DNA from: a virus
Direction: 5' to 3' (one strand)
IMG/VR virus record: IMGVR_UViG_3300027702_000001
Length of the DNA stretch: 64,000 bases
Below are positions 1 through 64,000 of the stretch, piece after piece; position 1 is the stretch's first letter; every line of letters starts with the position of its first letter. Both the position numbers and the translations under genes were made by a program. Under the pieces are notes generated by a model. It was given only the letters and a program-made list of their open reading frames with translations. It did not search any database and was not told the origin of the DNA.

Positions 1-188
1 TCTTAGTGTTACTCTTCTATAACCATTTTCGTTTAAATGGATTTTCAATTTTTTCCACTTTCCCCACTTAGTAGAGTAAATGGATCCGAGGTTACTGACA
101 TAATAGTCTTCATAGTTAGGGATGGGTTTATATAGTGTTCCCTCGCTATCTCTATAAGTGTTATCGTCAATTTTAGTAAATGGATTCA

Positions 189-833
189 TTAGGGTGAAAC
201 ATTAAAGGATAATGTGATACGATTGTGTTCCCCATTGGTTTCGTATCCGTGAGTTAGGTTACTGGGGAAAATGATAATATCTCCTTCAGTAGTGGGAACA
301 CTTGCATCTAGTAAATTAAACGCGGTTAATCCATTTTGCTTACATTGCATAATTGGATAATAGGATGATTGAGTAATACGTTTAAACTTAAGAGGGGCGT
401 GTTTAGTTGGATCATAGTTAATGAAATAGCATCCTGAGTAAAGACAATTAGAAAATTCGTGAGGTGCATATAGTGCATTTTGTGATGCGACTTCAATATG
501 AGAGTCAATTAACTCCATACTGCTTAGATCATAATTAAGTGATTGCTCATTAATTTGTCTAACTGCGTCGAGGATGGTGTTTCTTACGTCCTTAAGTGTT
601 GGATGGTCTAGGATGTTATTTTTGCCTATTTGCGTCACACCGTGGCATATATCGCTATTAGGGGATTGAAATAGGTCATCATTTGTGCAACTATTAATAT
701 AACTAGTAATTGCGTTTTTATCCCTTTCGTGGTTTTTATTGGTATAATTACCTACTGGGGACATAAACAACCCATAGACGTTAGTCTGTGAGATGGATTC
801 AAAATCGTCCGAAAGTTCTTTAGGATTATGCAT
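189..833 (-). CDS. Putative 2OG-Fe(II) oxygenase (TIGR02466-like), first metal motif degenerate
   Basis: xxH-x-x-SN-x-x-YSG-x-YF, then GDIIIFPSNLTHG and RITLSFN; HEF instead of HxH/HxD. Confidence 0.7.
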   Translation of the reverse strand: MHNPKELSDDFESISQTNVYGLFMSPVGNYTNKNHERDKNAITSYINSCTNDDLFQSPNSDICHGVTQIGKNNILDHPTLKDVRNTILDAVRQINEQSLNYDLSSMELIDSHIEVASQNALYAPHEFSNCLYSGCYFINYDPTKHAPLKFKRITQSSYYPIMQCKQNGLTAFNLLDASVPTTEGDIIIFPSNLTHGYETNGEHNRITLSFNVSP

Positions 834-862
834 AAAAAAAGAGGACTTGATTTAGTCCCCTT
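834..862 (-). terminator. Intrinsic terminator after 895..1209
   Basis: AAGGGGACT-aaatca-AGTCCTCTT stem followed by T-run on minus strand. Confidence 0.75.
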
Positions 863-891
863 ATTATAGTGTATATAGTGAATTAAGTCAA
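863..891 (-). promoter_or_regulatory. Sigma70-type promoter for 189..833
   Basis: TTGACT (891-886), 17 bp, TATAAT (868-863). Confidence 0.8.
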
Positions 892-894
892 CTC

Positions 895-1209
895 CTAGAA
901 TGCGAGTTCCATACCATTAGCGAACGATTCTGTCAAGTGCTTATAACCTACGAACCAAGTCCAGTTTTTTTGAAATACGCGAGTGCCATAAGAGAATTCA
1001 TCAAGAATAGCGTTTAGACGTGATTTAGTTGTATTTGACTGCCAACCGCCATCGAACAATAAAACAGAATTATTTGTAACTGTCGCGATGTGATTGCCGT
1101 GAAGATAAACGTTTGCTTCGCCGTTAGCGTGTGAAACTGAAGTGTTAGCACTTGAGAAGTTTCTGCCGCTTCTGATTGCTGAGTTCATTTGAGTTTCGAT
1201 CTTTCTCAT
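895..1209 (-). CDS. Conserved cyanophage early hypothetical protein
   Basis: ORF behind early promoter with GGAG RBS; MRKIETQMNSAI N-terminus typical of cyanomyovirus early ORFs. Confidence 0.75.
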   Translation of the reverse strand: MRKIETQMNSAIRSGRNFSSANTSVSHANGEANVYLHGNHIATVTNNSVLLFDGGWQSNTTKSRLNAILDEFSYGTRVFQKNWTWFVGYKHLTESFANGMELAF

Positions 1210-1241
1210 TTGGTGTGGTCTCCTGTGTTGCTTATACTAAT

Positions 1242-1299
1242 ATTATAGGGGATAGGGACGCGATTGCTCGTGGTGATGTGCCACTAATCGAACTGTCCA
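1242..1299 (-). promoter_or_regulatory. Early promoter: palindrome plus -10
   Basis: GTGCCACT-N6-ACTGTCCA at 1278-1299, 30 bp from TATAAT at 1247-1242. Confidence 0.8.
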
Positions 1300-1334
1300 C
1301 TATCGATTGAAATTGGTCGCTTGACGTGATACGG

Positions 1335-1658
1335 TTATTTACCTACACCATAGTCGGATGCACTTCTCTCAAGTTGGTATAAACTTCCGTCTCTATATCC
1401 ATCCTTATATGATTGTTCGATCTTTTCATCGATCTTTTCAAAGTCATCTTCTGAGAGACCACTCTCTTCAAATATGAGAGCATTATCTGAAAACTTTTTC
1501 AACTCTTCGAGAACCTCGTCATATGAAAATTGGCGGTTTATGGCATTATCTCCGAATGCTAGTTCATAGACCTCTTCAATAAATTCGTTTTTTGTCATTT
1601 GCTTTTGTACTGTGAGATTGTTCAATGTGAGATTAAGATCGGTAAAAATATCGTGCAT
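1335..1658 (-). CDS. Hypothetical acidic protein
   Basis: ORF track; true start may be internal (MTKNEF). Confidence 0.65.
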   Translation of the reverse strand: MHDIFTDLNLTLNNLTVQKQMTKNEFIEEVYELAFGDNAINRQFSYDEVLEELKKFSDNALIFEESGLSEDDFEKIDEKIEQSYKDGYRDGSLYQLERSASDYGVGK

Positions 1659-1663
1659 AGTGC

Positions 1664-1858
1664 TTAGAATGGGTTTGTCCAGTTGTATGCTTGCCAGTCG
1701 GTAACCATCCCATCCTGATTGAGACAGTCAACAAAATTGTTCCAACTCTCACGTTTTGCGATTGTGTCACCTCTGAGAGACCTATCCTGAGCAACTGCCA
1801 CTTTCCAGTTGTAACGAAATTGCTCTAGAACCTGTGCTTTAGTTGCTCTCCAAGTCAT
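1664..1858 (-). CDS. Conserved cyanophage early hypothetical protein
   Basis: GGAG RBS downstream of early promoter; ends WTNPF. Confidence 0.75.
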   Translation of the reverse strand: MTWRATKAQVLEQFRYNWKVAVAQDRSLRGDTIAKRESWNNFVDCLNQDGMVTDWQAYNWTNPF

Positions 1859-1890
1859 TTGTGAAATTCTCCTTTGTTTGCTATGTACTT

Positions 1891-1948
1891 ATTATAACGG
1901 ATCAGATCCGCCTGTGTAGGGTAGGTGTGCCAGTTCGTGAACTGTCCT
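1891..1948 (-). promoter_or_regulatory. Early promoter: palindrome plus -10
   Basis: GTGCCAGT-N6-ACTGTCCT at 1927-1948, 30 bp from TATAAT. Confidence 0.8.
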
Positions 1949-1979
1949 AGAAAGTGGTCAGTCTTAACTGTCTCACCTA

Positions 1980-2129
1980 TCATTTATTAAGAGGACTATT
2001 AAAATATGCTTTATTTACTGTGTAGATGGTAAAAATAGCGACGATGATCCCTAAAAACCCTAACCACAAAATTGGGGAATGGGGGAAATCATAAAATGGG
2101 ACTTCTGTGGGAACTGTTGAAAATTGCAT
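1980..2129 (-). CDS. 49-aa single-pass membrane protein (below track cutoff)
   Basis: Manual translation MQFSTVPTEVPFYDFPHSPILWLGFLGIIVAIFTIYTVNKAYFNSPLNK. Confidence 0.65.
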   Translation of the reverse strand: MQFSTVPTEVPFYDFPHSPILWLGFLGIIVAIFTIYTVNKAYFNSPLNK

Positions 2130-2201
2130 CTTAGTTAGGATTGTAGTAATTGAGAAATAGCACTAATATAAGTGCGATGAGTAAAATTGAAATTAATGTG
2201 A

Positions 2202-2354
2202 TCATTCTGTGTAAATGTATGAGTTACCAGTATCATATACATCCGAGAAGAGTTGATAATATAGGTCATTCATTAAACCAAATTCAAAACTAGTGCTCGC
2301 GTGCTCTTCAGTCACTCCCTCGTAGCATTTGAGAATTTCATCGTATTGAGTCAT
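2202..2354 (-). CDS. 50-aa hypothetical protein (start revised)
   Basis: MTQYDEILK start follows GAGG RBS and early promoter at 2379-2437. Confidence 0.6.
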   Translation of the reverse strand: MTQYDEILKCYEGVTEEHASTSFEFGLMNDLYYQLFSDVYDTGNSYIYTE

Positions 2355-2378
2355 CTTTTCCTCTGTGTGTATGTCCTT

Positions 2379-2437
2379 ATTATAAGGGATGGGATTCTGA
2401 TCTGTGTGTGGTGTTGTGACAGTAGTTAAACTGTCAC
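2379..2437 (-). promoter_or_regulatory. Early promoter with perfect palindrome
   Basis: GTGACAGT-agttaa-ACTGTCAC at 2416-2437, 31 bp from TATAAT. Confidence 0.85.
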
Positions 2438-2451
2438 ACAACCGCTTGACT

Positions 2452-2877
2452 TTAGTAAACAATGCACTTATTAGATACATTGATGATTGTGAAACCGAGT
2501 TTTTTCAAAATGTTTCTGTATCTTGCGATCTGAGTATTCTTGCGATATTCCCAAAGATCATCGCCAAATGCGATATAAGAAACTTTTGCTACTTTAGTTT
2601 TATCAATGTGGATTGCTCTGTAATCATCCTGACTAATGTCATCGTGGGCAACTTCGTAAACGATCTTAGCAACTACCTCGCCGCCGATGATTAGATTTGA
2701 AAATTGTGAACTCTCGTGCTTATGGTGAACTGAAACACCATTTTTCCAGTCTCCAGATCCATATGTGTTGATGCGATCTAAAACTAGTGATTGATATACA
2801 TCGAGTTTAACCTCTGGATCAAGACCAATTCTAAGTGTGTCTTTTTTGATCAATTCTTTGTATTCTGTAGGTGTCAT
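2452..2877 (-). CDS. Hypothetical early protein
   Basis: 141-aa ORF directly downstream of early promoter. Confidence 0.7.
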   Translation of the reverse strand: MTPTEYKELIKKDTLRIGLDPEVKLDVYQSLVLDRINTYGSGDWKNGVSVHHKHESSQFSNLIIGGEVVAKIVYEVAHDDISQDDYRAIHIDKTKVAKVSYIAFGDDLWEYRKNTQIARYRNILKKLGFTIINVSNKCIVY

Positions 2878-2900
2878 AGTTGTTTGTTGCTTATACTAAT

Positions 2901-2959
2901 ATTATAGAGGATGATGCCCCAATAATAAACAACGTATGTGCCACTAATACAACTGGCAC
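2901..2959 (-). promoter_or_regulatory. Early promoter: palindrome plus -10
   Basis: GTGCCACT-N6-ACTGGCAC at 2938-2959, 31 bp from TATAAT. Confidence 0.8.
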
Positions 2960-3177
2960 TAGAATCTTTCTAAAACTTTGCATTTTGTGTAATCGTAAAC
3001 AGGATGGAATAATGTTTCATCGTTACAGATCTCCATTTGTGGTCTACAATAGCGTCCCCATCTTCGGATAACTGTTCCAATAATCCGCTGACCTATTGGA
3101 TCAGTATATGCAACGATGTCACCTATACTAATCTCAGCGAATGACTCATAAGTGTTGTATTCTTTAATTTCGCTCAT
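2959..3177 (-). CDS. Hypothetical protein
   Basis: ORF track; ATGA overlap with the upstream gene. Confidence 0.65.
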   Translation of the reverse strand: MSEIKEYNTYESFAEISIGDIVAYTDPIGQRIIGTVIRRWGRYCRPQMEICNDETLFHPVYDYTKCKVLERF

Positions 3178-3467
3178 TGTGCAACCGCTCTTGTTTCAAT
3201 GATTATATCTCTAACTCTCTCGCGATCGAGTGAGTCACCATCACCGAACTCAATATTAGTGTTTGATGCACATAGATCGAGGTATCTGAGTATCGCGATT
3301 GCGATCTCTCCAGTTGTTAATCCATCGATAGGATATAATACATCGGGATGATATGGTGCATAAAACATTTCGATGTAGTCTAGAAATTCTTGAAAATTGC
3401 TCATTAGTTTAAACTCCTTTAACTCTTGATTGTAGGTAAGTTGATTGTGCTTGACATACATTGTCAA
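3174..3467 (-). CDS. Conserved cyanophage hypothetical protein
   Basis: ORF track; FGDGDSLDRERVRD C-terminal motif; start may be internal (MSNFQEF). Confidence 0.65.
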   Translation of the reverse strand: MTMYVKHNQLTYNQELKEFKLMSNFQEFLDYIEMFYAPYHPDVLYPIDGLTTGEIAIAILRYLDLCASNTNIEFGDGDSLDRERVRDIIIETRAVAQ

Positions 3468-3603
3468 CTAGGTTATCGAATGTTTGAACATCCCAACCTT
3501 TTTGCTCTGCAATGTCTAACTCATATGCTGTCATTACGAGGTCATAGAGTAACTCATATTGACCGTTTGAGACTTCGATGTTCATTCCTTTGATTGATTT
3601 CAT
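3409..3603 (-). CDS. Hypothetical protein
   Basis: First ORF after early promoter at 3631-3688. Confidence 0.65.
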   Translation of the reverse strand: MKSIKGMNIEVSNGQYELLYDLVMTAYELDIAEQKGWDVQTFDNLVDNVCQAQSTYLQSRVKGV

Positions 3604-3630
3604 TTAGTTTCCTTTGTTGCTTATGTCCTT

Positions 3631-3688
3631 ATTATAGAGGATCAATACCGCTCTGGGATGCTTTTGTAGTCACTTTGTGAACTGTCAC
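3631..3688 (-). promoter_or_regulatory. Early promoter embedded in upstream CDS end
   Basis: TAGTCACT-N6-ACTGTCAC at 3667-3688, 30 bp from TATAAT. Confidence 0.75.
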
Positions 3689-3836
3689 AATGCTCCTTGA
3701 CAAGATACTCGCCTGTCATTATTCTTTCAAATACTGCGGTCTGTTCATCATTTAGATCAAAATCCATATCTCTGAGAACATCCCACAATTTCGTCATTTG
3801 ATATGACTCGTCGAATGACATAGGTATATTAAGCAT
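3642..3836 (-). CDS. Hypothetical protein
   Basis: ORF track; overlaps neighbour by 8 nt. Confidence 0.6.
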   Translation of the reverse strand: MLNIPMSFDESYQMTKLWDVLRDMDFDLNDEQTAVFERIMTGEYLVKEHCDSSQSDYKSIPERY

Positions 3837-4050
3837 CGTAGTTAACTCCGCTGAATACTCTTAACTGAGTTGCATAGTTAACAAGTTGATTGAATCCATC
3901 TTCATTAACCTTAATCTGATCCAATAGTTTTGAGTCTGCTTCCTCATCTAGAAACCTCATAATGGTCTCAAATTGCTCTAACGCTTCAAAACTAAATCCA
4001 GTCTCTGCTTCAACTTCTGTGCGATCTGGGAATGTTGAGTTTTCAATCAT
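3829..4050 (-). CDS. Hypothetical protein
   Basis: First ORF after early promoter at 4076-4133. Confidence 0.65.
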   Translation of the reverse strand: MIENSTFPDRTEVEAETGFSFEALEQFETIMRFLDEEADSKLLDQIKVNEDGFNQLVNYATQLRVFSGVNYDA

Positions 4051-4075
4051 TTGTTTTTGTGTTGCTTATGTTCTT

Positions 4076-4133
4076 ATTATAGTCAATGTATGTGAACTAT
4101 GGTGTTACTGTGTGCCAGTAATATAACTGTCAC
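4076..4133 (-). promoter_or_regulatory. Early promoter: palindrome plus -10
   Basis: GTGCCAGT-N6-ACTGTCAC at 4112-4133, 30 bp from TATAAT. Confidence 0.85.
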
Positions 4134-4145
4134 ATAAACACTTGA

Positions 4146-4319
4146 CTATGCACTTTGTAGTTCTTCTAATAGAGAGTCAAGTTCTTCAGCACAATGACCA
4201 CATCGCCATCCCTCTATCTCATCACCATAATATGCATATCTGTTGACGAATCTGCCTGATCCTGCTTTACAAGACTGACCACAGTCAACACAAATTTCTG
4301 AATCAAATGTATTTTTCAT
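4146..4319 (-). CDS. Small putative zinc-finger protein (57 aa)
   Basis: Manual translation MKNTFDSEICVDCGQSC...GWRCGHCAEELD; two CxxC pairs; ATGA coupling. Confidence 0.65.
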   Translation of the reverse strand: MKNTFDSEICVDCGQSCKAGSGRFVNRYAYYGDEIEGWRCGHCAEELDSLLEELQSA

Positions 4320-4474
4320 TGACATTCATCCTCGAATCTCTCGCGAGCAATATATTCACAATGCTCAACAAGTGCTTCCTCACTCATCATTTTATCGAGA
4401 CCTGTGGATCTCATTAGTTCTAACTCATCTTCATAGAATCCGATAAGCATATCTTCGTGATGTGAAACTGACAT
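4316..4474 (-). CDS. 52-aa acidic hypothetical protein
   Basis: Manual translation MSVSHHEDMLIGFYEDELE...; abuts both neighbours. Confidence 0.6.
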   Translation of the reverse strand: MSVSHHEDMLIGFYEDELELMRSTGLDKMMSEEALVEHCEYIARERFEDECQ

Positions 4475-4612
4475 TTAAACTTCCTCCCAGTAAACTGTAT
4501 CAACTTTTTTGTATAGGTCTGCAACTTTGCATCCCTTACGTCTAGCAACTTGTCTTGCTATCATCGCTTCCCATCTTAGGAATGACTCATAGTTTCTGTT
4601 TCTACTGCACAT
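4475..4612 (-). CDS. 45-aa basic hypothetical protein
   Basis: Manual translation MCSRNRNYESFLRWEAMIARQVARRKG...; first ORF after early promoter. Confidence 0.55.
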   Translation of the reverse strand: MCSRNRNYESFLRWEAMIARQVARRKGCKVADLYKKVDTVYWEEV

Positions 4613-4635
4613 AATGTTTGTTTGTTTATACTATT

Positions 4636-4693
4636 ATTATAGTAAATGTGTGGTGCATATGGTAACATTATGTGCCACTAGTTGAACTGTCAC
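4636..4693 (-). promoter_or_regulatory. Early promoter: palindrome plus -10
   Basis: GTGCCACT-N6-ACTGTCAC at 4672-4693, 30 bp from TATAAT. Confidence 0.85.
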
Positions 4694-4923
4694 ACTATAC
4701 GATCCATAAAGATCCATTCATATGTACCATCCTCAGGGTCGCGTCCATTAACAACGAACTCCTCATAAATGGCATCAGCATCTTCAAAACGGTTGGCATC
4801 AATGTGCTTTGTGATCACGTTCATATAGTGCTCACCCATCAGATCGATTGATGTTTGCATTTGTTCGTTAAATTCCTGATTGTGGTCGTACTCGTGGATC
4901 TCGTTATTTAATTCGTGTTCCAT
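4690..4923 (-). CDS. Hypothetical acidic protein
   Basis: ORF track; overlaps the end of the nuclease gene. Confidence 0.6.
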   Translation of the reverse strand: MEHELNNEIHEYDHNQEFNEQMQTSIDLMGEHYMNVITKHIDANRFEDADAIYEEFVVNGRDPEDGTYEWIFMDRIV

Positions 4924-5407
4924 AGGTTTGGATTGCTTTGTTGGGGATAGTGTAACCTAGTCGTGGGTCTTTTCTGATCTTATCAGAATGAAATTGCTTT
5001 TTAAGACTAGGTAGTAGCAAGTTCAGTACGTCATCGCCTGACATTTGCCAGACTTCAACAACTTGACCATTTTGGTAGCGTGCAAAGAAGTGATCTTTGT
5101 ACTTGCCAATTTTCTCTTCTTTGAGATACTTGACTTGATCTTCCCAAGTATCTTGAACTGAAATACCATTGTAGGTGGCGGTCAGTTTCTTACCTATAGT
5201 AGATTTATACTCAACAGGATTCCCATCCTGATCAAATGCATCAGCACCCGAGTAATCATCAGCAACATTATGCCCAAGGATACCCGCTAAGTGAATTTCA
5301 CGTGAGCGTGCATAACTGAATGGATCTCCCCATCCGTGTTGGTCGCAAAGAGCATACATTTGCTCAAAAAGTTGCTGATATTGTTGTTCGGGTGTTGTCA
5401 CTTGCAT
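4904..5407 (-). CDS. PvuII-like PD-(D/E)xK restriction-type endonuclease (167 aa, start revised)
   Basis: GADAFDQDGNPVEYKS parallels PvuII GNDAVDNAGQEYELKS with the same D-x9-E-x-K spacing; HGWGDPF, FFARY and IPNKAIQTYGTRIK parallel PvuII HGINDIF, IFAIY and IPVKYVMEHGTKIY (PvuII recalled from memory). Confidence 0.7.
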   Translation of the reverse strand: MQVTTPEQQYQQLFEQMYALCDQHGWGDPFSYARSREIHLAGILGHNVADDYSGADAFDQDGNPVEYKSTIGKKLTATYNGISVQDTWEDQVKYLKEEKIGKYKDHFFARYQNGQVVEVWQMSGDDVLNLLLPSLKKQFHSDKIRKDPRLGYTIPNKAIQTYGTRIK

Positions 5408-5429
5408 AGTTTTTTGATTCGATACCTCT

Positions 5430-5487
5430 ATTATAAGGGTTAAACCCATCCGTGTGTGGATGGGTGTGCCACTAGTCAAACTGTCAC
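5430..5487 (-). promoter_or_regulatory. Early promoter of the nuclease gene
   Basis: GTGCCACT-N6-ACTGTCAC at 5466-5487, 30 bp from TATAAT; 8-bp inverted repeat ACCCATCC/GGATGGGT in the spacer. Confidence 0.85.
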
Positions 5488-5488
5488 A

Positions 5489-5722
5489 CTAGCAGGATGC
5501 AGGTGAGTAGTTTTGTGGTTCAGTTAAGAAGTCAGTCACCTGATAATGAAGATCGAGACGTGAATTGATTGTTTCAATCATTTCTCGCTTACTCATCAAT
5601 CGCATTGACATAGCATTAACCTCACCCCACTTATTTTTCAAACTGAGAGTATAAACAAATTTCTCACTCAAAATCGCGTGTGGACGAAATTCGACTGTCA
5701 TCGATCCTGCTGTGAGTTGCAT
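5489..5722 (-). CDS. Conserved cyanophage early hypothetical protein
   Basis: GGAG RBS, first ORF after promoter at 5750-5807. Confidence 0.7.
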   Translation of the reverse strand: MQLTAGSMTVEFRPHAILSEKFVYTLSLKNKWGEVNAMSMRLMSKREMIETINSRLDLHYQVTDFLTEPQNYSPASC

Positions 5723-5745
5723 TTGGTCTCTCCTGTGCTTTACCT

Positions 5746-6069
5746 CTATATTATAGAGGATGGGGCAAGGTCTAGTGGTTCGGGTGTGACAGTTTGTGGT
5801 TTGGCACGAAGTGTCATCTGTTGCCAGTCATCCCACTCTGTTCCATAGTTGGATTCCACTAGTGGTTTAATCTGTTGCATCAATCCGATTATCGCATCCT
5901 TACCATAATAATCGTGTTCGATAGTATCGTGACCAGTACAACTTGATCCCCACTCTGTTACGTCGCTGTCAATTCTTGCAACTAAACCGCGTGCATAATA
6001 GTGAAGCATACCTAGTTCTCTTCTTGATAATGCTATTGTGAACTCTTTTTTGTTGTTAGTTGGATTCAT
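5746..6069 (-). CDS. Hypothetical protein
   Basis: ORF track. Confidence 0.65.
   Translation of the reverse strand: MNPTNNKKEFTIALSRRELGMLHYYARGLVARIDSDVTEWGSSCTGHDTIEHDYYGKDAIIGLMQQIKPLVESNYGTEWDDWQQMTLRAKPQTVTPEPLDLAPSSII
5750..5807 (-). promoter_or_regulatory. Early promoter embedded in upstream CDS end
   Basis: GTGACAGT-N6-TTTGGCAC at 5786-5807, 30 bp from TATAAT. Confidence 0.75.
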
Positions 6070-6229
6070 TGATTTTTTCTAATTTTTGGACTGCGTTGAA
6101 TAGGTCGATGTGTGCAGCGTCAGGTTCATCGCCATTTTCTTTGAGTTCTGATCTATAAATGTCAGGTAGATCTCTGACTGCATCATAAATCTCCTCAAAT
6201 TCACCTCTGGTGAGTGTTAGAGTTATCAT
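6056..6229 (-). CDS. 57-aa hypothetical protein
   Basis: Manual translation MITLTLTRGEFEEIYDAVRD...AVQKLEKINESN; ATGA coupling. Confidence 0.6.
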   Translation of the reverse strand: MITLTLTRGEFEEIYDAVRDLPDIYRSELKENGDEPDAAHIDLFNAVQKLEKINESN

Positions 6230-6384
6230 ACTATCCTCGCATCTAATACTGTAACTGGATCTAAGAAGAAACCATTGTCAACTGCATTGACTACTACGTT
6301 TTGGTTGATAGCGTCACCGTCAGGGCAATTAATATCGTCCTCTGTGTCTACTTCAACTAGTAATGTGATTTGTACTCTTGTCAT
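6226..6384 (-). CDS. 52-aa hypothetical protein
   Basis: Manual translation MTRVQITLLVEVDTEDDINCPDGD... Confidence 0.6.
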   Translation of the reverse strand: MTRVQITLLVEVDTEDDINCPDGDAINQNVVVNAVDNGFFLDPVTVLDARIV

Positions 6385-6407
6385 CGTATTAGGTTTTGTA
6401 ATATTGT

Positions 6408-6566
6408 GTCAGAGCGAGGGTATCCCTCAGCGATTTGTAATGTGAGCAACGCTCTGACGGTTGAGTGTGGAAGAGGTTCGATTTAAAGATCTGTTCCACC
6501 TGATCTATCCTAACTTGTTTACCAAGTGTAATTAAGATCAGGGATGAGATCACCCTTGCCCTCCAC
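6408..6566 (-). ncRNA. Candidate structured RNA or 5' leader, family unknown
   Basis: Five stems readable directly; G-U pairs only work on the minus strand; starts at the predicted TSS of an early-type promoter. Confidence 0.55.
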
Positions 6567-6572
6567 ATTTAT

Positions 6573-6631
6573 AATATACCAATAAAAAAGACCCCTGTGG
6601 GGTCTTAGTAGTACAGTTTGTTAAGTGTCAC
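6573..6631 (-). promoter_or_regulatory. Early-type promoter driving the structured RNA
   Basis: AGTACAGT-N6-AGTGTCAC at 6610-6631, 31 bp from extended -10 TG-G-TATATT. Confidence 0.6.
6582..6606 (-). terminator. Intrinsic terminator within promoter spacer
   Basis: AAGACCCC-aca-GGGGTCTT plus T-run. Confidence 0.8.
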
Positions 6632-6636
6632 ATAGT

Positions 6637-7065
6637 TTACCAGAATGTCCCCAAATGTGATACTTTATCGAAGAATGCATCACGATATGTATCGTCAATG
6701 CTATTGGCATCTACCGTATAAAGATCTCCTTTGAGTTTCTTACATTTACCAGTAGATCCCTCGATCCACATTAAATCCTTTGTGTGTCCACCTCTATCTG
6801 CAGGTGCGGTCGCTGTGATTTTAATATCATCGCCATCATCTACCTTAGCGAATACCCAAGTAACTGAAGCATCATCCGCCACAACTTTATCTCTCTTGTT
6901 GAGAATGACGTTTACGTGAGTGTGAATTGCTCTTGCAATTTCTGTTGATGTACCAACAGATTCTGCTATTCTCTTGTCAATATTGGCGAGTCTATATGCC
7001 TTCGCCTTCTCTGACAATTTAGTGAGCAGCAAATCTGCATACCCATTAACTGCTGTCGTTGCCAT
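6637..7065 (-). CDS. Hypothetical protein
   Basis: 142-aa ORF; late-like CATAAATA upstream near 7098-7105. Confidence 0.7.
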   Translation of the reverse strand: MATTAVNGYADLLLTKLSEKAKAYRLANIDKRIAESVGTSTEIARAIHTHVNVILNKRDKVVADDASVTWVFAKVDDGDDIKITATAPADRGGHTKDLMWIEGSTGKCKKLKGDLYTVDANSIDDTYRDAFFDKVSHLGTFW

Positions 7066-7099
7066 TGTTAATCTCTGTAACTGTACTTGATAGAGTTAT

Positions 7100-8353
7100 T
7101 TATGCAACTAGCGACTCGGGGTGAATACCGTGGACGAAAATTGCATCTACCACTCTCTGAAGACGTGTTGCGATGTGCTTACCATAGTTCGTATAGGTTG
7201 GTACTGTCACATAACCAGTTGATTTACGATACATCTTAAGGTTACCCGCTGTCAGTTCACCTGAGCGAATACGCTTAGCGTCCTCTTTATGTAGTCTGAT
7301 AACACGTCCAATGGTCTGTGCCATTTCGACTGTTGCCAACTGTCTCAACAAAATAGTATGAGTTAGACCGTGAACATTGATACCTTCAGATAGGATAGAG
7401 TAATGGAAGATGATAAACTTACGGTCATCATCACGTCCGAACTCATCCATAGTATTGAAGAATTGCTCACGGTTCACTTTCTTGTCATTGACATATGCAC
7501 CGAACTTACTAGTCACGTGTAGAACATCGTAACCGCGTTTCTTCAACTCTGATAGCAAGTTGGTCTGACCTAGCATATTACCTAGGATCTTAGAACTAGG
7601 AACTGCACATAACACTTTCTGTGCATTCTTGTCATCAAGATTGTCAAGTACATCGAGAACTGTTTGTGCATCAGTATCCCAACTCATTTTCTTGACTCTC
7701 TCAATATCTTGCTCAAATGGAACAATAGTTGGGGGGATGATAGCACCGCTGTCAATCAATTCTGGTGCAGGTACTTGCTCAATGATAGTACCATAAACAA
7801 TTTGATTGTTCATACCACGGTTATGCCTACGTGCGATTCGTGGTGTTGCTGTGAAGAAATAGCAACGTTTTGCTGTTTCGCTGATCTCTTCAGTTGATTC
7901 GAAGAAATTACGTGATACACTATTGTGTGCTTCATCAAAATATGCTACATCAATGTCAATGCCAGACTCAACAACCCTTCTCAATGAGTGGTATGTTGTG
8001 AATATAACGTGAGTTGCAACTGCACTATTCTGTTTGTTATTCTCAATGAATTTTGCAATTTTCTCAGGTTTTGTGCCTGACTCGTGATGAGTCTCTCCAG
8101 AGTGGACGTGATAGACGTGAACCCAATCTGCCTTAAGGAACTGCATAAACTCCTCACTCAACTGATTAGCGAGTAGGATACGAGGTGCAACAACTACAAT
8201 GGTGCTGTTGCTGTTAGTGTTGAGCGTCCTTAGAGCATCATAGATCATACACATTGTCTTACCACCACCTGTAGGGATGATGATCTGACCTTTAGTCTCA
8301 CGCTTCATAGCGTCTACTGCTCTCTGTTGGTGCTTGCGAAGATTAACGCTCAA
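7100..8353 (-). CDS. Superfamily 2 helicase (ResIII/DEAH-like), TTG start revised
   Basis: Motifs IPTGGGKT, FDEAH, FTATP, LSEGIN, QTIGRVIR; AGGAG RBS before TTG at 8353. Confidence 0.9.
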   Translation of the reverse strand: MSVNLRKHQQRAVDAMKRETKGQIIIPTGGGKTMCMIYDALRTLNTNSNSTIVVVAPRILLANQLSEEFMQFLKADWVHVYHVHSGETHHESGTKPEKIAKFIENNKQNSAVATHVIFTTYHSLRRVVESGIDIDVAYFDEAHNSVSRNFFESTEEISETAKRCYFFTATPRIARRHNRGMNNQIVYGTIIEQVPAPELIDSGAIIPPTIVPFEQDIERVKKMSWDTDAQTVLDVLDNLDDKNAQKVLCAVPSSKILGNMLGQTNLLSELKKRGYDVLHVTSKFGAYVNDKKVNREQFFNTMDEFGRDDDRKFIIFHYSILSEGINVHGLTHTILLRQLATVEMAQTIGRVIRLHKEDAKRIRSGELTAGNLKMYRKSTGYVTVPTYTNYGKHIATRLQRVVDAIFVHGIHPESLVA

Positions 8354-8378
8354 ATGTCTCTCCTGATCTGTTACCAAC

Positions 8379-8438
8379 AGTATAGCACCAAAAAACCCAC
8401 CGATGGGGGGATCGATGGGTCAGTTGTTTGATTGTCAC
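8379..8438 (-). promoter_or_regulatory. Early-type promoter of the helicase
   Basis: GGGTCAGT-N6-ATTGTCAC at 8417-8438, 32 bp from TATACT. Confidence 0.65.
8390..8419 (-). terminator. Intrinsic terminator within promoter spacer
   Basis: CCCATCGAT-cccccc-ATCGGTGGG plus T6. Confidence 0.75.
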
Positions 8439-8442
8439 ACGG

Positions 8443-8598
8443 TCAGAACATATCTCTGCAGATTCGTTTGCATTCAGTCTGGTGTGGTTCAATCGAGCAT
8501 TCGATTAAGCAATTAAAATAATCGTCGATTAGTTCTTCATCCTTTTGTGATTGACTAGACCATTCAACAAGTTGCTCTTTCGCCATTAAGTTGTGCAT
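8443..8598 (-). CDS. 51-aa protein with twin CxxxC motif
   Basis: Manual translation MHNLMAKEQLVEWS...DYFNCLIECSIEPHQTECKRICRDMF; GGAG RBS. Confidence 0.7.
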   Translation of the reverse strand: MHNLMAKEQLVEWSSQSQKDEELIDDYFNCLIECSIEPHQTECKRICRDMF

Positions 8599-8703
8599 AG
8601 TTGTTACTCCAAATTTTATACCATAATGTAGAACATACTGGATGCATTGTGCCCTCGTTAATTCTACTAGTATTTAGATTGTTCTGGAATCATAACACAA
8701 TAA

Positions 8704-8719
8704 TGTAACGATGAATACA
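8704..8719. promoter_or_regulatory. NtcA-like site
   Basis: TGTA-ACGATGAA-TACA, a perfect TGTA-N8-TACA in an intergenic gap. Confidence 0.35.
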
Positions 8720-8734
8720 TTTTGTTACTTATCG

Positions 8735-9058
8735 TTACTTGTTTCGATCTGTCTCCCAGTAGTATGATGAGTGCTCGTAACTGTCTTGTTGATGTCCGTC
8801 AAAGAATGCTGAGTTATCTGTGAATGAGATAACACCGTCTCCGAGGGAATCGAGATCTCGCCTAATATGTCCACCATTGTTTTTTTGAATGAATCGCAAG
8901 TCATCGGATTGTTGCAAGGTGTGTTGCCTTTCGAGTTCATAGATTACAGTATTCAGATTTGACTGTAGGTATTCTGTGAAGTCACAACTCTTCACTTTCT
9001 CGTGCATCAGTTTCGCCAGAGAGATCATCAGTTCGTAGTCCGTGTTCGATTGATTCAT
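8735..9058 (-). CDS. Hypothetical protein
   Basis: ORF track; overlaps upstream ORF by 77 nt. Confidence 0.55.
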   Translation of the reverse strand: MNQSNTDYELMISLAKLMHEKVKSCDFTEYLQSNLNTVIYELERQHTLQQSDDLRFIQKNNGGHIRRDLDSLGDGVISFTDNSAFFDGHQQDSYEHSSYYWETDRNK

Positions 9059-9206
9059 TTACAAAATCCTGTAGTTGTTCCTGTGTTAAATTGTTTAGAA
9101 AATTCCACATAGGGTCATTTCTGTCCCAGTCAAGAGTAACCTGACCGTCATCCACTTGTATCTTAAGCGAATCCCCTGCTTTTCCCTCCTTTTGTTCGTT
9201 TGGCAT
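8982..9206 (-). CDS. Hypothetical protein (start revised)
   Basis: MPNEQKEG start preceded by GAGG. Confidence 0.55.
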   Translation of the reverse strand: MPNEQKEGKAGDSLKIQVDDGQVTLDWDRNDPMWNFLNNLTQEQLQDFVNESIEHGLRTDDLSGETDARESEEL

Positions 9207-9375
9207 CAATAACCTCGATGTGTGAAATGTGAAAATGGAAGTTCCACCAAGCGGTTTGGACTTCCTCGTAAGACTCCACGATTTTAACTGAATTGTCTTT
9301 GCACCATATTTTATACCAATGACGGTCATATGGCAAGTCAGACGTGGATTTGAAAAACTCAGGCAATGCGTTCAT
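9163..9375 (-). CDS. Conserved cyanophage hypothetical protein (start revised)
   Basis: PYDRHWYK...SYEEVQTAWWN motif typical of cyanomyovirus small ORFs. Confidence 0.65.
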   Translation of the reverse strand: MNALPEFFKSTSDLPYDRHWYKIWCKDNSVKIVESYEEVQTAWWNFHFHISHIEVIDAKRTKGGKSRGFA

Positions 9376-9568
9376 AAGACCAATGGGGATCATCGTCACC
9401 GTCAGACCAGATCCAGACTTCTGGATTGTGCTTAGATGACATAAACATACGTCCATCCTGTCTACGTTCTTGAATTTCGCAGATCGGATTGTTATTCATC
9501 AGTTCAACGAACTGTTTCTTTGTTCGGTCAGATTTTGGTGTGACCTTCACCAATTTCCTCAAGGGCAT
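9359..9568 (-). CDS. Hypothetical protein
   Basis: ORF track; VTPKSDRTKKQF...MNNNP. Confidence 0.65.
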   Translation of the reverse strand: MPLRKLVKVTPKSDRTKKQFVELMNNNPICEIQERRQDGRMFMSSKHNPEVWIWSDGDDDPHWSYERIA

Positions 9569-9704
9569 TTTCTAATTTTTGATAAAGATCATTATATTTG
9601 ATACCGAGAAGTCCTTCCCAGTTCTGTTGTGACTTGTCATCAAGCATTTGCATTGCTGACATACATCCTAACAGTTCCTTAGGTGTGAGTGCGAGATTGT
9701 TCAT
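9528..9704 (-). CDS. 58-aa hypothetical protein
   Basis: Manual translation MNNLALTPKELLGCMSAMQMLDD... Confidence 0.55.
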   Translation of the reverse strand: MNNLALTPKELLGCMSAMQMLDDKSQQNWEGLLGIKYNDLYQKLENALEEIGEGHTKI

Positions 9705-9822
9705 TTGTGAATTTCTGGCATTGATCGGGTTTCTCTTGTATTGTAGCAGATTTTGGTTTGTCGTGTGCGTAATAAATCAAAATCTCCTCATACATATCTT
9801 CGTCATATTCTGTGTGTTTCAT
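9679..9822 (-). CDS. 47-aa hypothetical protein
   Basis: Manual translation MKHTEYDEDMYEEILIYY...; ATGA coupling. Confidence 0.5.
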   Translation of the reverse strand: MKHTEYDEDMYEEILIYYAHDKPKSATIQEKPDQCQKFTNEQSRTHT

Positions 9823-10148
9823 CGGTCTTCGATCGGTGGTAACATCTCATTTCCTGGGTGGTCATTGGTTTTTCCCTTGTAATTCTTTACATTTTTAAAG
9901 GAAGAATCATCAATTTCAAGATCATCCCATTGATGTGGATAAACTAATAAACAACACTTATTAAATGGTTGTCTAAATCCCTTTGGATTAGGTTTCTTTG
10001 AAATACAAAGAGTAATATACAAATCATCAACAAATTCAATCGTGCCCTCGAAACCCTGATACCTTGCAGGCATTCCAACTTCGAGTGATTTTAGTATGTT
10101 TCTGATTTCCAATGGGATAGACTCCGAAATGAATAAGGGTGTTGACAT
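9819..10148 (-). CDS. Conserved cyanophage hypothetical protein
   Basis: EGTIEFVDDLYITLC...CCLLVYPHQW. Confidence 0.7.
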   Translation of the reverse strand: MSTPLFISESIPLEIRNILKSLEVGMPARYQGFEGTIEFVDDLYITLCISKKPNPKGFRQPFNKCCLLVYPHQWDDLEIDDSSFKNVKNYKGKTNDHPGNEMLPPIEDR

Positions 10149-10342
10149 TAATCCTGTTTCAAGTGTAGCAATTCCGTAATCGAATTGACTTCGGCAAGTG
10201 TGTCAGTTAGTGTTGTGTCACTAATCTGTCCATTGTGATGTCTCTTATGTAGAGACGAAATATACAACAGTATCGCTTTGCGTAAAACTGACTGTTGTGT
10301 GTTGTTAAGCATTCTGGTTTTTAAGAACATCGCTCCCCCCAA
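10148..10342 (-). CDS. Hypothetical protein
   Basis: ORF track. Confidence 0.55.
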   Translation of the reverse strand: MGGAMFLKTRMLNNTQQSVLRKAILLYISSLHKRHHNGQISDTTLTDTLAEVNSITELLHLKQD

Positions 10343-10359
10343 GCGAATGTATATACTAT

Positions 10360-11034
10360 TTACAATAGTGGGATAAGTGAAAACTGATCGTCAGGTAAAT
10401 CTGACTGAGTATGAATATCGAATCCCAATGTAATACGAGGTGTGTTAAATTCCTCGTGAACTACAACTCTGTGTTGCCTGTCCCACCCAGGCCCAAAGTA
10501 CACATTGCCCACTTCATTCTTTATATTATAAAGTGGTTTACCGTCTTGTCTGAACTCGGTTGTAGTGTTGTGTGGTTCGATACTAATGTAACCGTGGTAA
10601 TCAAATTTGTGATCGTGCCACTTCAACACCTGATCTGGTGTGTGGTAGTTCATCCAACATTGAAACCATAGTGGTTCATCAGTTTCGAGAGTGCTTCGCA
10701 CAATAGTTTGAAGATCTCTGTTCAATAACCAGAATAGCGGACTCGGGGACGTAAGTGCGAATATGTTATAGAACCGATACCCAGAATGCTTTTCTTTGCC
10801 CCAATTCTTGATAAATTCCTCATCTTCCTTGCGTTTTTCATCATAATCCCATAGACTAGGAAGATTTCCTAATGTCAATCCTTGATCAGTCAGCGATGAA
10901 TCGAATCCTGTAAAGGTATTTTTGAAGAGACGATGTGCTCTTCCCAGTTGTGCGATCATTTCATCCTGTTCGTGAATGATACAGGGTGATCTCCAGAGAG
11001 TCCAATCCTCTCCAGTTTCAAGTAAGGTTGCCAT
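10360..11034 (-). CDS. Putative 2OG-Fe(II) oxygenase (start revised)
   Basis: WMNYH...LKWHDH...HGYISI...QHRV...RITLGFD jelly-roll pattern. Confidence 0.65.
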   Translation of the reverse strand: MATLLETGEDWTLWRSPCIIHEQDEMIAQLGRAHRLFKNTFTGFDSSLTDQGLTLGNLPSLWDYDEKRKEDEEFIKNWGKEKHSGYRFYNIFALTSPSPLFWLLNRDLQTIVRSTLETDEPLWFQCWMNYHTPDQVLKWHDHKFDYHGYISIEPHNTTTEFRQDGKPLYNIKNEVGNVYFGPGWDRQHRVVVHEEFNTPRITLGFDIHTQSDLPDDQFSLIPLL

Positions 11035-14271: not shown

Positions 14272-14441
14272 TAGTAACTCTGTTCACACTCCTCTAGGTT
14301 TTCTGAATTGCATTCCGACATCGAAATGCTATCTGTATGATACGAATGGTAAATTCTTCCCCATACTACATCGAATTCTTCTTGGTTCAAGTCTTTGAAT
14401 AAAACTTTACCATTGTAATAGACGTGGTACGATTTAGACAT
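14271..14441 (-). CDS. 56-aa conserved hypothetical protein
   Basis: Manual translation MSKSYHVYYNGKVLFKDLNQEEFDVVWGRIYHSY...; GGAG RBS. Confidence 0.65.
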   Translation of the reverse strand: MSKSYHVYYNGKVLFKDLNQEEFDVVWGRIYHSYHTDSISMSECNSENLEECEQSY

Positions 14442-60193: not shown

Positions 60194-61288
60194 TCAACCA
60201 ATAGAAGGTGCAATCAAAGCAACAGGAGTTGTCTCTGCAGCAGCAAGATCTAGTGGGAAGTTGTGAGCGTTACGCTCGTGCATAACTTCCATACCAAGAC
60301 CTGCTCTGTTAAGAACATCTGCCCAAGTTGGAATCACTTTACCAGATGCATCAACAACCGACTGGTTGAAGTTGAATCCGTTCAAGTTGAATGCCATTGT
60401 GCTCACACCCATTGCAGTGAACCAGATGCAAACCACAGGGAATGCAGCAAGGAAGAAGTGAAGTGAACGTGAGTTGTTGAATGAAGCATATTGGAAGATC
60501 AAACGACCAAAGTAACCGTGAGCGGCAACGATGTTGTAAGTCTCTTCTTCTTGACCGAACTTGTAACCGTAGTTCTGAGATTCAGATTCTGTAGTCTCTC
60601 TGATTAGAGAAGATGTAACTAGAGAACCGTGCATTGCACTGAATAGAGAACCACCAAACACACCTGCAACTCCGAGCATATGGAATGGGTGCATTAGAAT
60701 GTTGTGCTCTGCTTGGAACACGAACATATAGTTAAAAGTACCTGAGATACCAAGAGGCATCGCATCTGAGAAAGAACCTTGTCCGAAAGGATACACCAAG
60801 AACACAGCGAATGCTGCAGATACTGGTGCTGAATAAGCAACACAGATCCAAGGACGCATACCTAGACGGTATGAAAGTTCCCACTGACGACCACAGTATG
60901 CTGTGATTCCGATAAGGAAGTGGAATACAACGAGTTGGAAAGGACCACCGTTATACAACCACTCATCTAGAGTTGCTGCTTCCCAGATTGGGTAGAAGTG
61001 TAGACCGATAGCGTTTGAAGAAGGGACAACAGCACCAGAAATGATGTTGTTACCATACAAAAGAGATCCTGCAACAGGTTCTCTGATGCCATCGATGTCC
61101 ACAGGTGGAGCAGCGATGAACGCGATAATAAAACAAGTAGCAGCGGCAAGCAAGCAAGGAATCATCAAGACACCGAACCAACCGACATAGATGCGGTTGT
61201 CAACGCTTGTGACCCAGTTGCATAGTTCGTCCCATCCTGAGAGGAGACCACCACGCTGGCGAGTAATAGTTGGACTTGAAATAGACAT
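60194..61288 (-). CDS. psbA: Photosystem II D1 protein
   Basis: [39 protein letters not shown]; uninterrupted. Confidence 0.99.
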
Positions 61289-62837: not shown

Positions 62838-62868
62838 AGTAATACGTTTGCTGAACGTATTTATTCTA

Positions 62869-63051
62869 TCAGAATAATCCGAAGAACATATGTCCAGTTA
62901 ACAAATCAGAACAAGCAGCAGCGACCAAACCGATCATTGCTAGTCTACCGTTCCAAGTTTCTGCCCAAACCTTTTGTGGTTCGATGGCGACTGCCTTGGC
63001 AGAGACTTGTGCGCTCTGCTCAGGGACTGAGAATTGTGTGTTGGTTCTCAT
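62869..63051 (-). CDS. hli: High-light inducible protein
   Basis: AETWNGRLAMIG. Confidence 0.92.
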   Translation of the reverse strand: MRTNTQFSVPEQSAQVSAKAVAIEPQKVWAETWNGRLAMIGLVAAACSDLLTGHMFFGLF

Positions 63052-63052
63052 C

Positions 63053-63160
63053 CTAAAAAATTCCTGGGATGATTTGTCCAGTTGTAACGTAAGCGCCTAC
63101 TGCTGCTACGAAACCGAGCATTGCTGCCCATCCATTAAATCTTTCTGCTTCTGGTGTCAT
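63053..63160 (-). CDS. hli: High-light inducible protein (35 aa)
   Basis: Manual translation MTPEAERFNGWAAMLGFVAAVGAYVTTGQIIPGIF. Confidence 0.93.
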   Translation of the reverse strand: MTPEAERFNGWAAMLGFVAAVGAYVTTGQIIPGIF

Positions 63161-63182
63161 TGTGAGTCTCCGATAGGGTGAA

Positions 63183-63269
63183 TTAAGAAAATACGAACGG
63201 AAGTCCGTTAGTTGCTGTGTAACCTAGCACAGCGAGGAAGGTGATCTGAGGAAAAATTGATTTGATCAT
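63183..63269 (-). CDS. 28-aa hydrophobic micro-protein in the hli operon
   Basis: Manual translation MIKSIFPQITFLAVLGYTATNGLPFVFS; fills the gap between two hli genes. Confidence 0.5.
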   Translation of the reverse strand: MIKSIFPQITFLAVLGYTATNGLPFVFS

Positions 63270-63273
63270 TGGA

Positions 63274-63471
63274 CTAACCAAGGATTCCAAAGAAAAAGAA
63301 GTTTCCTGTTGCGATGTAGGAAATCAAACCTGTGGTAAAACCAAGCATTGCAAGTCTACCGTTGAGTTTTTCAGCAACTTCGTTGTGAGTAACTGAAACA
63401 TCCATAACCTGCATCCTAGGTTCTTTAGCGAAGATGTTCTGTCTGCCGCCCTGTTCTGTGATAGTAGTCAT
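63274..63471 (-). CDS. hli: High-light inducible protein
   Basis: AEKLNGRLAMLG. Confidence 0.93.
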   Translation of the reverse strand: MTTITEQGGRQNIFAKEPRMQVMDVSVTHNEVAEKLNGRLAMLGFTTGLISYIATGNFFFFGILG

Positions 63472-63496
63472 TGATCAAGTATTAAGAACTGTTACA

Positions 63497-63525
63497 ATTA
63501 TATAGGGATTGTAAACTTTTGTCAA
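63497..63525 (-). promoter_or_regulatory. Consensus sigma70 promoter of hli operon with overlapping HLR1-like site
   Basis: TTGACA, 17 bp, TATAAT; TTGACAAA-AG-TTTACAAT at 63525-63508. Confidence 0.85.
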
Positions 63526-63547
63526 CCCCCAAGTCAGAATTCCTTGA

Positions 63548-63787
63548 TTACTGTGACGAAACTGTATCACGTTCGTAACAAGGGACACCTGCAGGGTCCA
63601 ACCACTTGGTGTATTCGAAGTCTTCGATAGCAGTCATCATCTGATCCATATTGTCACAGTAGTACATCGTCTGGTAACGCTCTGTGTACTCATTGAACTT
63701 AAGGATCCTGCAATCTGGTTTGCCATTGATCTCTAGTTTTCCACAGGTGACATACTTGTAAGGATAACGTTCGTGGATAAGGTCCAT
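63548..63787 (-). CDS. Conserved cyanophage hypothetical protein
   Basis: HERYPYKYV.CG...CRI.KF. Confidence 0.7.
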   Translation of the reverse strand: MDLIHERYPYKYVTCGKLEINGKPDCRILKFNEYTERYQTMYYCDNMDQMMTAIEDFEYTKWLDPAGVPCYERDTVSSQ

Positions 63788-63819
63788 AGAATTTGTTTAA
63801 CTGTTATTACTATACACAT

Positions 63820-63843
63820 AAAAAGACCCTCTTGTCGAGGGTC
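63820..63843 (-). terminator. Intrinsic terminator
   Basis: GACCCTC-gacaa-GAGGGTC plus T5. Confidence 0.8.
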
Positions 63844-63854
63844 GGTGTGCCACT

Positions 63855-64000
63855 TTAAAATGTGGGTCCAATATCTAGTGCAAGATTGTCTACGAAGAGT
63901 TCATAATCCTCGTCTGGGTCTCCGAAGAACTGGACACCAACAGACTCATAATATCTGAACAAACGTTTGAACAGAGATGGGTTCTCGTAATCAAGCGCGA
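63855..64000 (-). CDS. Partial conserved hypothetical protein (5' end outside window)
   Basis: Manual translation ...ALDYENPSLFKRLFRYYESVGVQFFGDPDEDYELFVDNL... Confidence 0.6.
   Translation of the reverse strand, partial: ALDYENPSLFKRLFRYYESVGVQFFGDPDEDYELFVDNLALDIGPTF

Follow-up and report, generated by a model that had tools for sequence, protein, structure and literature searches.

Introduction

The avoidance of restriction sites (short palindromes) by virulent double-stranded DNA phages was reportedly described by Sharp in 1986. In the known cases short type II palindromes are lost through synonymous changes, most strongly where the phage leaves its DNA unmodified. Among T4-like phages, those with unmodified bases rely on avoiding such sites (Rusinov et al., 2018; PMC6286503), and T4-like coliphages that lack the hydroxymethylase avoid most host sites (PMC6286503). 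Here we analyse a 64,000-nucleotide stretch of viral DNA (IMG/VR record IMGVR_UViG_3300027702_000001; hereafter the window, meaning the whole stretch) that comes from a marine T4-like cyanophage of the family Kyanoviridae and from which the word RGCY (AGCT, AGCC, GGCT and GGCC) has almost disappeared. Avoidance as such is textbook knowledge; the window is an extreme and ongoing case of it. The window lineage departs from the known cases in that three 4-bp words are almost or wholly gone from a genome of ~180 kb, the degenerate RGCY is the leading word, the pattern is one of phage family and habitat and not of documented host systems, and the depletion shows an early-gene gradient.

The same degenerate word is read by CviJI and CviKI-1 (RG^CY) of chloroviruses, frequent cutters that act between virus and host on unprotected DNA. 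Chloroviruses methylate their own DNA for protection (M.CviJI, yielding 5-methylcytosine), whereas the phage studied here has no C5-methyltransferase and lacks the sites instead. T4 offers another parallel, in that self and host DNA must be told apart while nucleases are active. Its hydroxymethyl-cytosine marks self and lets T4 nucleases destroy cytosine-containing host DNA; the window phage, in contrast, would use the absence of a word (for CATG). The third comparison is with R.PvuII (CAG^CTG), a type IIP enzyme of the PD-(D/E)XK class, which the predicted product of an orphan gene in the window (4904–5407, minus strand; 167 amino acids from ATG) resembles in size, full-length fold and aligned catalytic motif. 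The two proteins differ, however, in being ~20% identical, in their recognition segments, and in that the orphan gene has no cognate methylase in the window lineage. No paper that we found in a literature search reports that cyanophages avoid RGCY, CCGG or CATG. We add to what is known the distribution by family and habitat, a test for ongoing selection, the footprints in Trp-Pro pairs and in psbA, the early-region gradient and, with phylogeny controlled for, an association of the orphan nuclease with the loss of CATG.

Results

Depletion of RGCY in the window

By exact count the window contains 14 RGCY sites, all within positions 10490–58148: one AGCT (26138), two AGCC (20766 and 37056), two GGCT (18770 and 42994) and nine GGCC (10490, 11978, 12893, 19340, 23410, 36149, 46696, 56501 and 58145). 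The first-pass annotation, which had proposed near-total RGCY avoidance, listed ten sites; all ten are real, but those at 37056, 18770, 19340 and 36149 were missed. Base composition predicts 672 sites, dinucleotide composition 494 and a second-order Markov model 257, while 100 shuffles of synonymous codons, preserving every protein and the codon usage, give 374.5 ± 14 (minimum 339). Because a codon-preserving shuffle still expects ~375 sites, neither codon nor dinucleotide bias is the cause of the depletion, and the proposed near-total avoidance is confirmed and was understated. The early-gene (hyperplastic) region, positions 1–10489, has no RGCY site at all.

The gap occupies one corner of the NGCN table. 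AGCA (325), AGCG (127), GGCA (128), TGCC (220) and TGCT (384) are common, and the R-GC-Y corner alone is empty save for the 14 sites; the control words YGCR, RGCR, YGCY, TGCA, GTAC and ACGT occur near expectation. On the mRNA-sense strand AGCC was found once against 94 expected and GGCT twice against 129. Both being gone from this strand, the word is read symmetrically in duplex DNA and not in mRNA.

Codon contexts were determined for all residual sites. TGG-CCN, encoding Trp-Pro, is the sole RGCY context without a synonymous escape, and it accounts for seven of the nine GGCC sites (11978, 12893, 19340, 36149, 46696, 56501 and 58145), with the other two (10490 and 23410) in Gly-Pro pairs. The first-pass annotation had recognized this pattern, although its count of five in seven was too low. 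The remaining sites lie in Glu-Pro (18770), Gly-Cys (20766), Gln-Ala (26138) and Leu-Ala (37056) pairs, and one (42994) is intergenic, between open reading frames (ORFs) at 42801–42978 and 42996–43700, the gene junction to which it had been assigned. Close relatives of the window are present in IMG/VR, among them a complete genome of 181,945 bp (G002) that is 94.8% identical across the window; 13 of the 14 sites occupy the homologous place there. Six sites conserved in G002 are nevertheless removable, five synonymously and one as intergenic sequence (10490, 18770, 23410, 26138, 37056 and 42994), and these may be held by another constraint.

With the forced Trp-Pro sites set aside, all four RGCY members stand at 0.01–0.03 of expectation in the window lineage. 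These data support strong selection against RGCY as a unit, a coherent and degenerate word that is symmetric between the strands. The earlier suggestion of selection against a single degenerate 4-mer was right about its strength but too narrow, as CATG, CCGG and about ten 6-bp palindromes have also been purged.

Selection against new sites and its footprints

Between the window and G002 there are 3,284 substitutions, and these created two RGCY, no CATG and no CCGG. Random placement of the same substitution spectrum created 110 ± 10, 54 ± 7 and 23 ± 5, respectively, and two neutral control words arose at 47 versus 49 (GATC) and 52 versus 43 (TGCA) copies. The purge of RGCY, CATG and CCGG is thus still ongoing. 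Products of deamination stand at 1.04 (RGTY) and 1.13 (RACY) of expectation, with no excess of CTGG/CCAG; since such products are not enriched, a mutational origin is unsupported.

Two further footprints were found in protein-coding sequence. Trp-Pro pairs occur at observed/expected ratios (o/e) of 0.51–0.69 in G002, S-WAM1, Syn9 and P-SSM4, and of 0.94–0.95 in S-CRM01 and HTVC008M, while the reverse pair, Pro-Trp, is reduced in none of these six genomes. The host-derived psbA gene (60194–61288, minus strand), whose product is 89–90% identical in amino acids to Prochlorococcus D1, has neither RGCY nor CATG. Prochlorococcus psbA carries 14–20 RGCY and 6–7 CATG, and the copy in the podovirus P-SSP7 carries 15 and 4, so that the inclusion of psbA in the avoidance, noted on first reading, is confirmed.

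Distribution among phages and hosts

The window has a guanine plus cytosine (GC) content of 41% and ~105 ORFs, is 93% coding, mostly on the minus strand, and includes genes for the baseplate, fibres and a ResIII helicase as well as psbA, the last nearest to Prochlorococcus. The nearest GenBank phages show ~75% identity to it, in patches. Whole genomes of relatives were counted by script for exact 4-mer totals, and the ResIII/DEAD helicase gene (7100–8377, minus strand; identified by Pfam) served as anchor and tree marker for 99 related loci.

RGCY is avoided in all marine Kyanoviridae genomes tested, at o/e 0.03–0.35, although one (G409) reaches 0.60. The ratio is ~0.03 in nine close IMG/VR loci (86–97% amino acid identity), 0.10–0.24 in the marine isolates S-WAM1, S-CAM8, P-SSM2, Syn9, P-SSM4, S-PM2, P-TIM68 and P-RSM6, and 0.27 in HTVC008M, a SAR11 phage of the same family. 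Among 58 helicase-anchored IMG/VR loci without the PvuII-fold gene the median is 0.10, and some lineages are nearly free of RGCY (0 of 135, 0 of 94 and 1 of 174 expected sites in 20-kb loci). S-CRM01, a freshwater member of the family, stands at 0.94. T4-like phages of other families (RB49, KVP40 and phiM12) do not avoid RGCY but only GGCC (0.28, 0.20 and 0.13, respectively), and four cyanophages that infect the same host genera but belong to other families (P-SSP7, Syn5, P-SS2 and S-TIM5) keep RGCY at ~0.9–1.26, with GGCC alone depleted in P-SSP7 (0.09). DNA of the hosts, Prochlorococcus and marine Synechococcus, stands at ~1.0. The avoidance is therefore a trait of marine Kyanoviridae, not of all phages on these hosts.

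Depletion in these relatives is neither complete nor uniform. S-WAM1 keeps 191 RGCY sites, Syn9 346 and P-SSM4 242, and in most relatives AGCT (0.14–0.35) is less depleted than GGCC (0.04–0.18) or AGCC plus GGCT (0.06–0.17). In five genomes (S-WAM1, Syn9, P-SSM4, G405 and G408) the ratio falls to 0.00–0.02 over 20–30 kb around the helicase and early genes and is 0.1–0.3 elsewhere at equal GC. Depletion is strongest at 19034–51358 in S-WAM1, 30–50 kb in Syn9, 30–60 kb in P-SSM4, 40–90 kb in G405 and 50–70 kb in G408. The regional pattern of CATG differs from that of RGCY, with its minimum in the stretch just beyond the helicase region.

Other missing words

Under the codon shuffle the window should contain 152 ± 9 CATG and 63 ± 7 CCGG; it contains none of either. 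GCGC is reduced (17 versus 54), with no copy before 24772, while GATC is over-represented and not avoided (363 versus 282). Palindromes of 6 bp were then scored if they were free of the purged 4-bp words. About ten have been lost from the window through synonymous changes, including GATATC (shuffle mean 27), AGTACT (17), GTATAC (10), TACGTA (10), GTCGAC (8), TGCGCA (6) and CTCGAG (6). Across the whole G002 genome CATG and CCGG are absent (904 and 179 expected), and RGCY occurs 52 times against ~1490 expected; 35 of the 52 could be removed synonymously, and 17 of the 19 GGCC are Trp-Pro. Hexamers at or below 10% of expectation in G002 comprise 9 of 42 palindromic words versus 2 of 1846 non-palindromic ones.

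Which palindromes are missing varies with lineage. S-WAM1 lacks CTGCAG, ACTAGT and CACGTG, and S-CRM01 and HTVC008M lack other sets, a picture that fits what varied restriction repertoires would produce. RB49, KVP40 and phiM12 each lack 10–13 hexamer palindromes. CCGG loss is all-or-none: the word is at zero (one copy in Syn9) in every marine cyanomyovirus of the main clade, G409 with its RGCY ratio of 0.60 among them, and at expectation in a basal clade, S-CRM01 and HTVC008M.

Several further absences were recorded in individual phages. In the whole S-WAM1 genome all 16 CTNNAG words and YACGTR are at zero (for example, CTGAAG 0 of 174 and CTCAAG 0 of 131 expected), which suggests additional degenerate specificities acting on that lineage. 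GCGC, partly reduced in the window lineage, is wholly absent from the Prochlorococcus phages P-SSM4 (0 of 71 in the genome), P-SSM2 and P-RSM6. The SAR11 myovirus HTVC008M avoids TCGA (0.01), CGCG (0.03), GATC (0.28) and ACGT (0.34) besides RGCY, and many non-palindromic hexamers with GATC or TCGA inside them are missing from it as well.

A PvuII-fold nuclease and the loss of CATG

The orphan ORF at 4904–5407 can be extended to a TTG at 5479. Its AlphaFold model has a predicted local distance difference test score of 92.6, and in Foldseek all of ranks 1–11 are R.PvuII (E 1e-7 to 8e-7; template-modelling score 0.57–0.71). In the predicted structure the PvuII fold extends over the full length of the protein. 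Pfam PF09225 matches it with E 0.066 and 13.6 bits, under the cut-off of 25, and a profile search of the PDB with an alignment of the nuclease returned noise and no PvuII match. The catalytic D...E-x-K motif, GADAFD...VEYKS, aligns with GNDAVD...EYELKS of PvuII; D56, D59, E66 and K68 are invariant across 27 homologues and kept in all 55 loci examined. The invariant segments TYNGISVQ and KDPR take the place of the recognition segments of PvuII, the STHHH and INNPK regions.

Homologues of the nuclease number more than 1,000 in metagenomes and occur on 399 IMG/VR contigs, while the only isolates that carry one are P-SSM2, P-SSM5 and P-TIM68. No beta-class methylase was found in the window or G002, where the only methylase is a Dam-class enzyme 89 kb from the nuclease gene. 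Directly upstream of the nuclease copy in P-TIM68 lies an SPPY-type methylase, which has no counterpart in the window or G002.

On the helicase tree of 99 loci, a CATG ratio of 0.05 or less was found in 28 of 36 nuclease carriers versus 1 of 63 non-carriers. At least seven changes of the trait fall on supported branches, and in seven independent carrier/non-carrier pairs the CATG-free member was the carrier in six and the non-carrier in none (sign test, p ~0.03). Close kin of one carrier that lack the gene have intermediate CATG (0.04–0.44), as if avoidance had relaxed after gene loss. Where carriers keep CATG, the nuclease is intact but differs slightly in one loop (KDPRIG); a protecting methylase was not identified in these carriers, an N6A methylase of the P-SSM2_068 type giving weak cross-matches on 10 contigs. 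CAGCTG is absent from the window, but nearly all AGCT is gone too, so this absence is uninformative about CAGCTG specificity. Comparative data across loci point to CATG, not CAGCTG, as the word that carriers would have to lack. Total absence of CATG would be best explained as self-avoidance of the phage's own methylase-free PvuII-fold nuclease or, equivalently, by only CATG-free genomes being able to keep such a nuclease.

Two other roles considered for this gene were rejected. It is not the cause of RGCY or AGCT avoidance, as S-WAM1, S-CAM8, P-RSM6, Syn9 and P-SSM4 avoid RGCY without it, and the enrichment of CAGCTG among surviving AGCT sites in loci with the P-TIM68-type methylase is equalled in phages without the gene.

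Candidate genes in phages and hosts

No ORF family within ±10 kb tracked the RGCY-free state among 111 loci (best, 6 of 27 versus 0 of 54), while the same association test recovers the CATG-linked nuclease with p = 1.7e-16. Core genes common to RGCY avoiders and missing in S-CRM01 were also considered; these are 2-oxoglutarate-Fe(II) (2OG-Fe(II)) oxygenases, structural proteins, domains of unknown function, a transaldolase and a staphylococcal-nuclease homologue, and none is a sequence-specific nuclease. The oxygenases are paralogous and common to marine Kyanoviridae, including HTVC008M, whereas tblastn finds none in S-CRM01; their ORFs lie at 14338–14880, 67029–67658, 98166–98738 and 103298–104433 in G002 and at 189–833 in the window. 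The staphylococcal-nuclease homologue (PF00565, 153 amino acids) lies outside the window, in G002 (L108:3167–3628, minus strand), and is 81–82% identical across marine cyanomyoviruses; tblastn did not find it in S-CRM01, HTVC008M or the CCGG-keeping G405.

A search for C5-methyltransferases (PF00145) gave no match in G002, G003, S-WAM1, S-CAM8, P-RSM6, Syn9 or S-PM2. A Dam-class enzyme is present in all five Kyanoviridae genomes tested, and GATC is not avoided there; in HTVC008M, where tblastn finds no match to a Dam-class gene, GATC is avoided. Avoidance and methylation therefore look like word-by-word alternatives.

In the hosts, 37 of 301 Cyanobiaceae genomes (12%) have C5-methyltransferases, some adjoining SinI-like or EcoO109I-like nucleases, Vsr, or ORFs that fall in no Pfam or NCBIfam family. 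At three Synechococcus-like loci (L132, L137 and L141; GC 0.58–0.60) a C5-methyltransferase of 350–495 amino acids stands beside a conserved 319-amino-acid ORF. This ORF likewise belongs to none of the Pfam or NCBIfam families, and the pair, present in at least three genomes, probably makes up an uncharacterised type II system.

Discussion

Our data show that RGCY is being purged by selection acting on duplex DNA. On balance we favour the view, with some confidence, that nucleases met from outside, likely host restriction enzymes, drive this purge from unmodified phage DNA. Both the involvement of a nuclease and its place of residence are inferred. Type II systems do occur in the host family, as the C5-methyltransferases of Cyanobiaceae and the nucleases beside some of them show. 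The phage would leave its cytosines unmodified and escape sequence-specific cutting by having no target words; selection would strip nearly all RGCY synonymously and remove newly arising sites too, leaving GGCC mainly where Trp-Pro forces it and thinning Trp-Pro itself. The agent would be one or more restriction enzymes of picocyanobacterial hosts or of host-resident elements, with either a CviJI-like RGCY specificity or a GGCY-type plus an AGCT-type specificity, acting on incoming unmodified DNA. Cuts in early genes would be most harmful, and we propose that depletion is complete in the early region because of this. A cost that is graded and varies with position fits a nuclease that encounters incoming DNA and does its worst in early genes. 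Alternatively, the regional gradient could have arisen from module exchange between lineages. The absence of CATG, and perhaps of CCGG, would form a second layer, all-or-none in character.

Several observations weigh against host restriction. Avoidance follows phage family and habitat more than host: P-SSP7, Syn5, P-SS2 and S-TIM5 keep RGCY and CCGG at expectation (GGCC in P-SSP7 apart), and podoviruses and siphoviruses without RGCY avoidance are the main weakness of the proposal, which must invoke the myoviruses' broad host range and their lack of other counter-measures. HTVC008M avoids RGCY although its host is SAR11, in which restriction systems are reported to be rare. Host DNA around psbA avoids neither RGCY nor CCGG. 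No HpaII-family nuclease was found among 401 Cyanobiaceae genomes. To our knowledge, RGCY-cutting enzymes have been described only from chloroviruses, and none from bacteria. The CviJI-like agent suggested by the first-pass annotation was not identified: the phage lacks C5-methyltransferases, and in no host was an RGCY-specific nuclease or methylase found, in a search made without an R.CviJI model, the fold of that enzyme being listed as unknown (Orlowski and Bujnicki, 2008; PMC2441816).

It is also conceivable that the phage, or marine Kyanoviridae at large, encodes a methylase-free RGCY nuclease directed at host or competitor DNA and keeps its own genome free of sites. The same logic is supported for CATG in the window genome, the tracking of family and habitat instead of host would follow from it, and some lineages are essentially RGCY-free in 20-kb loci. 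We nonetheless regard this explanation as improbable. Relatives keep 190–350 RGCY sites, and G002 itself keeps 52, most of them synonymously removable, where CATG by contrast is at 0 of 904; the depletion is regional and not uniform; no ORF family within ±10 kb follows the RGCY-free loci; and no nuclease is among the genes common to marine members including HTVC008M but missing in S-CRM01, which encode oxygenases and structural proteins. The hundreds of sites in relatives, together with the regional gradient, therefore favour probabilistic restriction from outside over a phage-borne nuclease.

RGCY might instead be the overlap of several agents, such as a HaeIII-like GGCC, an AluI-like AGCT and a GGCY- or RGCC-type specificity. 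GGCC alone is depleted in RB49, KVP40, phiM12 and P-SSP7 and is avoided by many unrelated phages, and the weaker depletion of AGCT in most relatives would be accommodated. Yet the asymmetric AGCC/GGCT is depleted along with both palindromes in every marine member, so that a degenerate, symmetric reader would be needed anyway, and in the window lineage the four words are depleted to the same extreme once forced Trp-Pro sites are excluded; we consider such an overlap unlikely, if less so than self-avoidance. An artefact of mutation or composition (codon bias, dinucleotide bias or deamination of methylated cytosine) without selection for avoidance is hardly credible. GC and CG dinucleotides are somewhat under-represented, but the codon-preserving shuffle still predicts 375 sites where 14 remain, deamination products are not raised, the phage has no C5-methyltransferase, CATG has no methylatable-cytosine route to loss, and RGCY sites remain at just those places where the protein sequence demands them.

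A broader idea, which we put forward tentatively and hold to be possible though not probable, is that marine cyanomyoviruses tell self from non-self by sequence and not by modification, by means of methylase-free type II nucleases, a PvuII-fold enzyme for CATG and another behind the all-or-none loss of CCGG, with the RGCY purge revealing a widespread and so far undescribed RGCY-cutting activity among picocyanobacteria and their phages. If so, such nucleases would cleave the DNA of hosts and rivals and spare the word-free phage genome, and the RGCY cutter would perhaps be carried by some phages and drive avoidance in phages that co-infect with them.

These findings also have practical consequences. 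Such genomes are uncuttable by CviJI/CviKI-1, AluI, HaeIII, NlaIII, HpaII and MspI, which is relevant to library construction and typing. The purged words provide concrete specificities to seek in Prochlorococcus, Synechococcus and their phages, and the ORF at 4904–5407 provides a candidate, predicted from its modelled fold, for a methylase-free phage restriction enzyme. Cyanomyoviruses are among the most abundant viruses of the ocean, and the intracellular limits on their infection are poorly known. The near-total purge of RGCY, CCGG and CATG suggests that frequent-cutting nucleases would be a major force on these phages, strong enough to thin Trp-Pro from their proteins and to rewrite the psbA gene they captured.

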